NCBI GenBank assembly: GCA_963790205.1
Contig: CAWBNQ010000011.1
Span: 25,591-89,590 of the forward strand
DNA from: Nitrospirota bacterium
GTDB taxonomy: Bacteria; Nitrospirota; UBA9217
Reading direction: 5' to 3'
Length of the DNA: 64,000 nucleotides
Shown: positions 62,638 to 64,000 of the stretch, piece by piece
How the letters are laid out: each line of letters begins with the position of its first letter
Position numbering within the stretch: position 1 is the stretch's first letter
The notes under the pieces: model-generated
What the model was told of the DNA's origin: nothing
The model's input: the letters and a program-made list of their open reading frames with translations, nothing else
Database searches by the model: none
Program-made: the position numbers and the translations under genes

Positions 62638-64000
62638 ATGGCTACTTCCGACCTCTTAAAACTGCTCGAAAGCCTTCACCCGCTCGAAAACAAAGTCCTC
62701 CTCTGCTTCGACCGCGGCGAAAACCTGTCCGCGGCGGATATCCTCAAGTCATCGGGGCTCGACGAATCCCGCCTGGACATGGCCTCGGGCTGGCTCCAGT
62801 CCAAGGGTCTGCTCCGCGTAAAGGACGAGTCCGTCACGTCTTTTGTCTCTCTCACTGAGACCGGCCGGGCTTACCTCGAAAAGGGCACGCCCGAGATGCG
62901 AATCATCAATTCGCTCAGGAAGGGCAAACAGTTCACGGTCAAGGACGTGATCCAGTCCTGGGGCATGGAGCCGACGGAGGTAAGCTCTGCCGTCGGCGCG
63001 CTCAAGGAAACCGGCGCGGTCCGCATCGTTCAGGGCGGCATCCTGGAGCTTGTTCCCGGAGCCGACATCTCAGCGTATGAATTTTTGACCGATCTTGTAA
63101 AAATCGTTGCCGGACATGAGCAGGCTGAACTTCCCACATTCTCTGAAGTCCATCAGACCGCTCTCCAGGCAAACTTTCACAAACGCGGCAAAGCAAAAGG
63201 CATCTTTCGAATCACGGAAAAAAAGAACCGCTTCTTCGGCCTTACGTCCGACGGGCAGGATTTCCTCCGTTTGCTTAAGGAACGGGGCTCGGTCACCGAA
63301 GAGGCTTCAGTGCTCACGCCCGAGATGCTGAAGAACGGTACCTGGAAGAATAAAAAATTCCGCGCCTATAATATATCACTCAACCCTCCTCGCCAGAGCA
63401 TCGGCAGGAAGCATCCTTACAAAGAGTTTCTCGATTTCGTGAAATATAAATTCATCGGCATGGGTTTTGAGGAGATGCGCGGTCCGCTCGTGGAGAACGA
63501 GTTCTGGGACATGGACGCATTGTTCATGCCGCAGTTCCATCCGGCCCGGAACATCCACGACGTGTACTTCATAAAAGAGCCTGCCTCGTCCGGCAAGATC
63601 GAAGAGCCGTTCGGCAAGCGGGTAGCCGCGGCCCACAAGGACGGCGGCAAGACCGGCTCGACGGGATGGCGCTATCCTTTTGACCTCGAGCGCGCCAAGC
63701 GGCTGATCCTCCGGAGCCAGGGCACGGCCGTATCAGCCCGCACCCTCGCGTCGGGGCCGAAGATACCGGGAAAGTATTTCTCCATCGCGCGCTGTTTCCG
63801 CTACGACGCGGTGGATGCGACGCATGCGCCCGATTTTTACCAGGTCGAGGGTATTGTGATAGGCGAGGAGATCAATTTCAAGACGCTGCTGGGGCTGCTG
63901 AAGCTCTTCGGGCAGGAGGTCGCCAGGGCCGCAGAATTTCAGTTCAGGCCCGCGTACTTCCCCTTTACCGAACCGTCGGTCGAGCTGCACGTAAAGCATC
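62638..64000 (+). CDS. pheS: Phenylalanyl-tRNA synthetase alpha subunit, long archaeal/eukaryal type (truncated by window end)
   Basis: My translation, absent from the ORF track because it has no stop. Long N-terminal region, then LTPEMLKNGTWKNKKFRAYN, GRKHP, DALFMPQFHPAR, FRYDAVDATH, YQVEG, YFPFTEPS. Confidence 0.92.
   Translation, partial: MATSDLLKLLESLHPLENKVLLCFDRGENLSAADILKSSGLDESRLDMASGWLQSKGLLRVKDESVTSFVSLTETGRAYLEKGTPEMRIINSLRKGKQFTVKDVIQSWGMEPTEVSSAVGALKETGAVRIVQGGILELVPGADISAYEFLTDLVKIVAGHEQAELPTFSEVHQTALQANFHKRGKAKGIFRITEKKNRFFGLTSDGQDFLRLLKERGSVTEEASVLTPEMLKNGTWKNKKFRAYNISLNPPRQSIGRKHPYKEFLDFVKYKFIGMGFEEMRGPLVENEFWDMDALFMPQFHPARNIHDVYFIKEPASSGKIEEPFGKRVAAAHKDGGKTGSTGWRYPFDLERAKRLILRSQGTAVSARTLASGPKIPGKYFSIARCFRYDAVDATHAPDFYQVEGIVIGEEINFKTLLGLLKLFGQEVARAAEFQFRPAYFPFTEPSVELHVKH

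Follow-up and report, generated by a model that had tools for sequence, protein, structure and literature searches.

Archaeal/eukaryal-type phenylalanyl-tRNA synthetase genes in Nitrospirota and the probable displacement of the native pheST

The 64,000-nt stretch analyzed here (the window) covers positions 25,591 to 89,590 of contig CAWBNQ010000011.1 from a Nitrospirota bacterium (assembly GCA_963790205.1), and it ends inside pheS, the gene for the alpha subunit of phenylalanyl-tRNA synthetase (PheRS). In sequence and domain architecture this PheS is a PheRS alpha subunit of the archaeal/eukaryal type, and the pheT gene directly downstream encodes a beta subunit of the archaeal type. The pair is very probably the sole housekeeping PheRS of the genome, acquired by cross-domain transfer and now standing in for a native enzyme that it displaced. 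The genome (G000) was a metagenome-assembled genome (MAG) of 4.34 Mb in 14 contigs, 98.3% complete with 3.97% estimated contamination, and C11 is the contig of the locus. It was compared with a sample of 301 Nitrospirota genomes from 35 families, among which the family of the window (f1, probably UBA9217 in GTDB) was represented by 57 genomes. The pheS frame was open from position 62638 on the forward strand for 454 codons (62638..63999) and ran past the window end, in agreement with the long frame reported in a first-pass annotation of the window. The whole gene spanned G000:C11:88228-89793 and encoded 521 aa, its end falling at window-equivalent position 64203.

The first-pass annotation had assigned this PheS to the archaeal/eukaryal type, and the profiles, the solved structures and the gene trees agreed with that assignment. 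The NCBIfam equivalog for the archaeal-type PheS alpha subunit, NF003210 (PRK04172), has a cut-off of 350 bits; the whole PheS scored 574.5 bits with it and the in-window part 447 bits (E=7.8e-134). Of 14 control genomes, a set that contained four archaea, only four passed this cut-off. The Pfam domain tRNA-synt_2d (PF01409) matched residues 244-454 of the in-window part (E=2.7e-57) and gave 284 bits on the whole gene. The four motifs quoted in support of the type were all located: LTPEMLKNGTWKNKKFRAYN at residues 226-245, GRKHP at 256-260, DALFMPQFHPAR at 293-304 and FRYDAVDATH at 387-396. The first of them was preceded by 225 residues, close to the 220 or so that had been estimated. Residues H301, R388, H396 and R469 were among the columns invariant in 62 PheS homologues. 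The best sequence matches among solved structures were the alpha subunits of eukaryotic cytosolic PheRS (8s8b, 242 bits; human 3l4g, 227 bits), whereas bacterial PheS chains in the PDB reached 107-125 bits and aligned to the C-terminal half only. The bacterial-type PheS of related Nitrospirota were 334-383 aa long and just 29% identical to the window PheS.

The N-terminal region had been described as a long winged-helix extension, which fold prediction upheld. An AF2 (AlphaFold2) model built on the 62-sequence alignment had a mean pLDDT of 87.7, with values mostly of 81-91 across residues 11-180. It contained three helix-helix-helix-hairpin units before the catalytic domain (residues ~15-72, 74-138 and 145-216), each resembling a winged helix-turn-helix. 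The top Foldseek match of the model was chain 3l4g_C of human PheRS (508-residue chain), which aligned over 521 columns and thus at full length. The window PheS is therefore built like the human and other eukaryotic cytosolic alpha subunits (3l4g, 8s8b), with DNA-binding-fold domains at the N-terminus and the class II core behind them, although its identity to them was only 28-39%. The Pfam PheRS_DBD models, which had been proposed as a further check, returned no match to the N-terminal 221 aa even at E<=10. Only winged-helix families below threshold (MarR_2, TrmB, DUF2582 and HTH_IclR) appeared in Pfam; PheRS_DBD1-3 occurred in eukaryote-rich clusters of the atlas search and did not detect the N-terminus of the window PheS. 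A bacterial-type PheS was ruled out by its length, 521 aa compared with ~330-350 aa (~500 aa in the archaeal type), and by the lack of the bacterial coiled-coil domain Phe_tRNA-synt_N (PF02912), which was absent genome-wide and was detected by the same model in 10 of 10 bacterial controls.

The partner gene pheT began 82 nt 3' of pheS (G000:C11:89876-91574), outside the window. It consisted of two reading-frame pieces, which matched positions 1-131 and 133-548 of the 551 positions of TIGR00471 (pheT_arch). The intact PheT of a relative (L015, 565 aa) scored 477 bits with TIGR00471 and contained the domains B1, B3/4, B5 and CLM; a bacterial-type PheT from the same phylum (L110) had 802 aa and scored 859 bits on TIGR00472. 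Archaeal-type beta subunits are ~560 aa long and do not contain the B2 and FDX-ACB domains. The break between the two pieces was caused by one extra C at G000:C11:90282 (L003:2283; window-equivalent 64692), a point that speaks against the pair as a working enzyme. The extra C was most likely an assembly error. It was missing from all of the ~60 relatives, in which FGRKR.TVSIGIYEL was read in a single frame, and the two pieces were co-linear and complete on TIGR00471 in a locus that is the sole PheRS of the genome. Interrupted genes were found elsewhere as well, namely a frameshifted thrS 22 kb away on the same contig and broken pheS or pheT in several long-read MAGs of f1. The insertion site lay outside any homopolymer run (GGA-C-AGAGG), as might be expected if the insertion were real and the beta subunit a pseudogene, a two-piece product or the product of a programmed frameshift; given the evidence from the relatives, this is improbable.

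The thrS frameshift was located at G000:C11 ~112945-112955 (L113 ~3946-3955); the N-terminal 519 residues were thereby read in another frame than the part that binds the anticodon, although the two are contiguous in relatives. The long-read MAGs with pheS or pheT in pieces were related 'MFD' MAGs (L052, L061, L065, L071 and L088), a pattern that fits frequent indel errors in such assemblies. The pheS-pheT spacer of f1 varied from 1 to 526 nt and was a hotspot for inverted heptamer-repeat arms. In G000 (G000:C11:89794-89875 = L003:1795-1876) it had TGAACCC repeated 5.4 times, and such arms were also listed for L024, L018, L022 and L046. In seven relatives (L026, L035, L036, L050, L055, L060 and L070) the arms flanked an open reading frame of ~119 aa. 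The one that was scanned, from L036, encoded a 23S_rRNA_IVP four-helix-bundle protein (PF05635, E=1.9e-13).

Genome-wide, there was one match to PF01409, one to B5 and none to FDX-ACB (PF03147). With the bacterial-type PheS and PheT of four related genomes as queries, tblastn found no match beyond the archaeal-type locus and no remnant in this 98.3%-complete genome. The second, bacterial-type pheST that the first-pass annotation had suggested searching for was absent from the genome. The cluster thrS-infC-rpmI-rplT was located at G000:C11:111393-114649, 20 kb downstream of pheST, and was followed by an AMIN/Amidase_3 gene at the place usually taken by pheST. Both subunits were thus of the archaeal type and the native copies were gone, while relatives in the same phylum kept the bacterial type, which bears out the xenologous displacement of pheS(T) that had been proposed. 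Because the pair is the sole PheRS in the genome, it probably performs the phenylalanylation of tRNA-Phe.

Two explanations without displacement were considered. The archaeal-type enzyme might be an extra paralogue with another role, the housekeeping PheRS being encoded elsewhere. Nothing in favor of this was found, the nearest case being a Caldilineaceae MAG with both types (see below). The genome held no further PheS- or PheT-like gene, no sampled Nitrospirota genome had both types at E<=1e-30, and the catalytic residues of the archaeal-type PheS were conserved, so the paralogue explanation is extremely improbable. The locus might also be archaeal contamination binned into a bacterial MAG, and the host genome is indeed a MAG with some estimated contamination. 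However, pheS shared its 198-kb contig with queA, a SPOR-domain gene, a bacterial tRNA-Phe gene and thrS-infC-rplT, and its local GC content was typical of the window (0.558, within the usual 0.50-0.62). The same gene was found in the same context in 40-47 related assemblies, and archaeal-type pheS also occurred in closed one-contig genomes and in the cultured Leptospirillum ferrooxidans. Contamination was effectively refuted by these observations and retains hardly any probability.

Among the 301 Nitrospirota genomes, 185 (~60%) exceeded the NF003210 cut-off, with E values of 1e-89 to 1e-175. The other 116 were without the archaeal type; ~112 of them had a bacterial-type match only (E 1e-37 to 1e-47) and four had none. 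All 57 genomes of f1, the only sampled family in its order and class, carried the archaeal type. Each of the 35 families was uniform for the PheRS type, with no mixed family and no genome with both types. The carriers included Leptospirillum ferrooxidans (WP_014448342), Manganitrophaceae and MAGs labelled Nitrospiria, Nitrospirales or Nitrospiraceae. The closest loci came from Nitrospirota MAGs, with Nitrospirae bacterium GWC2_57_9 at 93% identity, and Nitrospiraceae bacterium UBA9217 was also among the related loci. In public annotation, these archaeal-type genes of Nitrospirota were named plainly 'pheS'. A contig labelled 'Betaproteobacteria bacterium MAG281' (L035) carried an f1-type pheS (80% identity) followed by an archaeal-type pheT; it probably belongs to the Nitrospirota and was binned or labelled wrongly.

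The position of pheST in the carriers gave an indication of how the displacement may have happened. In the bacterial-type families f4 and f11, the canonical order thrS>infC>rplT>pheS>pheT was found on one strand. In f9, f16, f18, f10 (Leptospirillum), f28, f35 and four named MAGs, the archaeal-type genes were arranged tail-to-tail with the same cluster, pheS>pheT> <rplT<(rpmI)<infC<thrS, with gaps of ~35 nt to 2 kb between pheT and rplT. Compared with the canonical order, this layout indicated that the foreign pheST occupies, in inverted orientation, the place from which the native genes were lost. Being on the strand opposite to the rplT cluster, it is therefore not co-transcribed with the old cluster. 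Within the DNA fetched, adjacency of pheST and rplT was not seen in f2, f5, f8, f29, f31 or other phyla. The concept of in-situ xenologous gene displacement in conserved operons reportedly goes back to work of Omelchenko et al. in 2003. The Nitrospirota case resembles it in that most carrier families hold the foreign pheST right after rplT, at the place of the native pheST in their relatives, and departs from it in that the foreign operon is inverted and, in f1, sits elsewhere. The f1 context queA-SPOR-DUF6941(-)-pheS-pheT was kept in 40-47 loci and was not seen outside f1. No synteny of the f1 locus was left with f2, f3, f6 or f7 except for queA, plus the SPOR gene in f2 and f6.

The tRNA substrate did not change with the enzyme. 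A single gene for tRNA-Phe(GAA) was found at G000:C11:105918-105993 on the reverse strand; it was of the ordinary bacterial type, with U20 and A73 read from the sequence. This tRNA-Phe was identical at 76 of 76 positions to that of two f3 genomes using the bacterial-type enzyme, and in other families, whichever enzyme type they had, the identity was 87-96% where the match spanned the whole tRNA. The identity across the boundary between the enzyme types indicated that the swap required no change of the tRNA in the f1 lineage. The main identity elements of tRNA-Phe (the anticodon and A73) are shared across domains. These shared elements may have let the archaeal-type enzyme take over without a change of tRNA.

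The source of the operon was approached with identities and trees of PheS. Outside the phylum, the nearest PheS were those of Armatimonadota (55-56%), Myxococcales and 'Deltaproteobacteria' (52%), Candidatus Xenobia (50-51%) and Caldilineaceae (48%), and the closest archaeal ones were those of Woesearchaeota and Nanoarchaeia (43-45%). One tree was computed with FastTree on 169 rows and the other, a quick tree under the posterior mean site frequency (PMSF) model, on 59 rows, with names obtained for about a third of 30 distant representatives. A branch of 1.27+1.27 substitutions/site with 100% support parted the window PheS from the bacterial-type PheS of the phylum. The window PheS thus lay in the archaeal-type clade, as the first-pass annotation had anticipated, and did not branch within the bacterial type. 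It belonged to a group of 25 rows with 93% support, the named members of which were all bacterial (Nitrospirota, Armatimonadota, Myxococcota, Xenobia and Chloroflexota). This group was nested in a 33-row clade (support 97) with Woesearchaeota and Nanoarchaeia, which in turn lay inside a 49-row clade (support 95). The labelled rows of the 49-row clade were DPANN or bacterial only, its archaeal ones being Nanoarchaeota, Aenigmarchaeota and Norongarragalinales, and it left out Methanopyrus, Thermoplasmata and Diapherotrites.

These trees suggested that bacteria obtained the pheS-pheT operon from a DPANN-like archaeon and that the Nitrospirota may have gained it either directly or via another bacterial phylum; the incoming operon would then have landed beside rplT and replaced the native pheST there. 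In every locus that reached past pheS, DPANN loci included, pheS and pheT adjoined each other, with the exception of one Armatimonadota locus in which 2.5 kb lay between them. This adjacency in bacterial and DPANN loci made a single operon transfer plausible. Several points weigh against the proposed type and origin. The four control genomes that passed the NF003210 cut-off were not named. The PheS trees were composed without spirochaete or Thermococcales sequences, and six rows of the 25-row 'bacterial' group were unlabelled, its purity being unproven. DPANN sequences are fast-evolving, and long-branch effects on the inference of a DPANN donor are possible. The function of the archaeal-type PheRS, finally, was read from homology only. 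The donor group is accordingly less certain than the core finding of a sole archaeal-type PheRS that displaced the native one.

Outside the Nitrospirota, bacterial-type pheT was absent from four of the five carriers tested. The fifth, the Caldilineaceae MAG mentioned above (G304, Chloroflexota; L090; C724:266-2830 and C79:10068-10934), had a bacterial-type pheT (661 bits, TIGR00472) in addition to archaeal-type pheST. It may have been caught midway through displacement, or the two types may have been binned together by error. As a speculation that we consider rather unlikely in its full form, one DPANN-like (Woesearchaeales/Nanoarchaeia-like) operon could have entered Bacteria once and spread among at least five phyla (Nitrospirota, Armatimonadota, Myxococcota, Xenobia and Chloroflexota), replaced the native genes at the rplT slot in inverted orientation and later jumped within the Nitrospirota into f1, with tRNA-Phe unchanged. 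If that were true, an essential two-subunit enzyme of translation would be a mobile cassette that was exchanged repeatedly.

The first-pass annotation had also considered the gene useful as a lineage marker. This held at the family level, where the trait was clean; above it, the carriers did not form one clade in the species trees from RpoB and RpoC, though the approximately unbiased (AU) test did not reject such a clade. Species trees were built from RpoB (PMSF) and from RpoB+RpoC (LG+G4), with ultrafast bootstrap (UFBoot) and SH-like approximate likelihood ratio test (SH-aLRT) supports given as UFBoot/SH-aLRT. In the RpoB+RpoC tree, a bacterial-type clade was recovered at 100/100 and a main carrier clade (f2, f5, f8, f9, f10, f16, f18 and f20) at 98/99, with f1 outside the latter. 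Instead, f1 paired with the bacterial-type f3 at 89/57, near f6 and f7, and the carriers were monophyletic in none of 200 bootstrap trees. In the PheS+PheT tree (LG+G4), f1 was sister to (f8,(f29,f2)) at 97/97 and nested within the Nitrospirota at 95/92. Two members of f10, Leptospirillum-like (L121 and L122), had RpoB frames of 1724-1744 aa, whereas ~1320-1390 aa was the length elsewhere in the phylum; their rpoB profile match did not start before position 254-275, suggesting that a large segment was inserted or added at the N-terminus.

Two explanations were proposed for the presence of the operon in f1. The first is that f1 received it secondarily from another Nitrospirota lineage and not by descent. 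We lean slightly toward this second transfer within the phylum, because f1 was placed differently in the RpoB+RpoC and PheS+PheT trees and because its operon sits at a distinct locus. The other is a single ancient acquisition in one Nitrospirota ancestor, from which f1 inherited the operon by descent; the operon would later have left rplT without any second transfer. Monophyly of the carriers was left standing by the AU tests (p=0.255 for RpoB and p=0.113 for RpoB+RpoC), and the backbone nodes of the species trees were weak (SH-aLRT of 81-90 in the RpoB trees, 89/57 in RpoB+RpoC), both of which count against a second transfer. In addition, f2, f8 and f29, the sisters of f1 in the gene tree, also lacked adjacency to rplT, and no family was mixed for the PheRS type. 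Against descent from a single acquisition stand the well-supported main carrier clade without f1, the bootstrap trees that never united the carriers and a free tree that was better than the carrier-monophyly tree by 28 log-likelihood units. Moreover, the f1 tRNA-Phe was identical to that of the bacterial-type f3 and only 89-96% identical to that of other carriers. On this evidence, inheritance from a single ancient acquisition is tenable with a probability somewhat short of even.

A gene swap of this kind is known from other bacteria. The Spirochaetaceae (Borrelia, Treponema and Spirochaeta) carry an archaeal-type PheRS that has been put forward as a synapomorphy. Its subunits (alpha ~513-528 aa, beta ~514-573 aa) stand in place of the bacterial pair of 340 and 800 aa; a connection with Thermococcales was reported, and for the beta subunit also one with Nanoarchaeum, which had weak support (Andam and Gogarten, 2011, PMC3191353). 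In the Nitrospirota, as in the spirochaetes, both subunits were of the archaeal type and only part of the phylum carried them, the rest having the bacterial form. The recipient is another phylum, however, and the nearest archaea were DPANN (Woesearchaeota and Nanoarchaeia) for the Nitrospirota and Thermococcales for the spirochaetes. In the Nitrospirota, the species tree did not clearly unite the carriers in one clade. Bacteria of the candidate phyla radiation (CPR) possess archaeal-type TyrRS and TrpRS of DPANN origin (Mukai et al., 2017, PMC5370408). These are likewise aminoacyl-tRNA synthetase (aaRS) genes of uncultured bacteria with DPANN archaea as nearest relatives, but the tRNA identity elements were changed in CPR, whereas tRNA-Phe was unchanged in the Nitrospirota. 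In the part of the literature that was searchable, no paper was found on an archaeal-type PheRS in Nitrospirota, Nitrospira or Leptospirillum. What the Nitrospirota add to this known kind of swap is how widely it occurs in the phylum, which archaea were the likely donors, the inverted in-situ slot and a tRNA that stayed the same.

PheRS, an essential enzyme, serves as a 'universal' marker, and pheS is one of 24 phylogenetic markers in a published set (PMC3636077). With an archaeal PheRS in ~60% of the Nitrospirota genomes sampled, trees and estimates of completeness that rely on such markers are affected. The Nitrospirota provide, besides the spirochaetes, a second large and well-sampled cross-domain replacement of a two-subunit aaRS, and one that points to DPANN donors. 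Two features hint at how such a swap can be tolerated, the tail-to-tail position at rplT and a tRNA-Phe that did not change. Bacterial and archaeal/eukaryal PheRS differ in inhibitor binding, many PheRS-inhibitor structures being among the Foldseek matches, which may matter for the selective inhibition of nitrifiers or acidophiles.

The features at the window end are listed below. The absence of an infC-rpmI-rplT context, as claimed in the first-pass annotation, was confirmed, the neighbors of pheS being queA, a SPOR-domain gene and a DUF6941 gene on the reverse strand.

Table 1. Features of the pheS locus in window coordinates, with the evidence for each.
Feature	Position	Strand	Evidence and conservation
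queA	60062..61105	+	PF02547, E=7e-130; kept in 40 f1 loci
SPOR-domain protein gene	61168..61911	+	PF05036, E=3.4e-16; kept in 45 f1 loci
DUF6941 gene, divergent from pheS	62140..62550	-	PF22091, E=3.1e-23; kept upstream of pheS in 47 f1 loci
Divergent intergenic region 5' of pheS, 87 nt	62551..62637	.	
pheS, archaeal/eukaryal-type PheRS alpha, codons 1-454 of 521	62638..64000	+	NF003210
PheS N-terminal region, residues 1-225, three winged-helix-like units	62638..63312	+	AF2 model, Foldseek
Start of class II catalytic core (tRNA-synt_2d) with four motifs	63313..64000	+	PF01409

In the intergenic region 5' of pheS, the promoter/terminator scan detected no sigma-70-like or terminator-like site, and the Rfam scan of the window, which returned CRISPR repeats only, gave no known leader RNA, T-box or attenuator there. 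The CRISPR array, a large one, was located at 53430-57013 of the window; its 37-nt repeat, a match to Rfam CRISPR-DR9, occurred 51 times.

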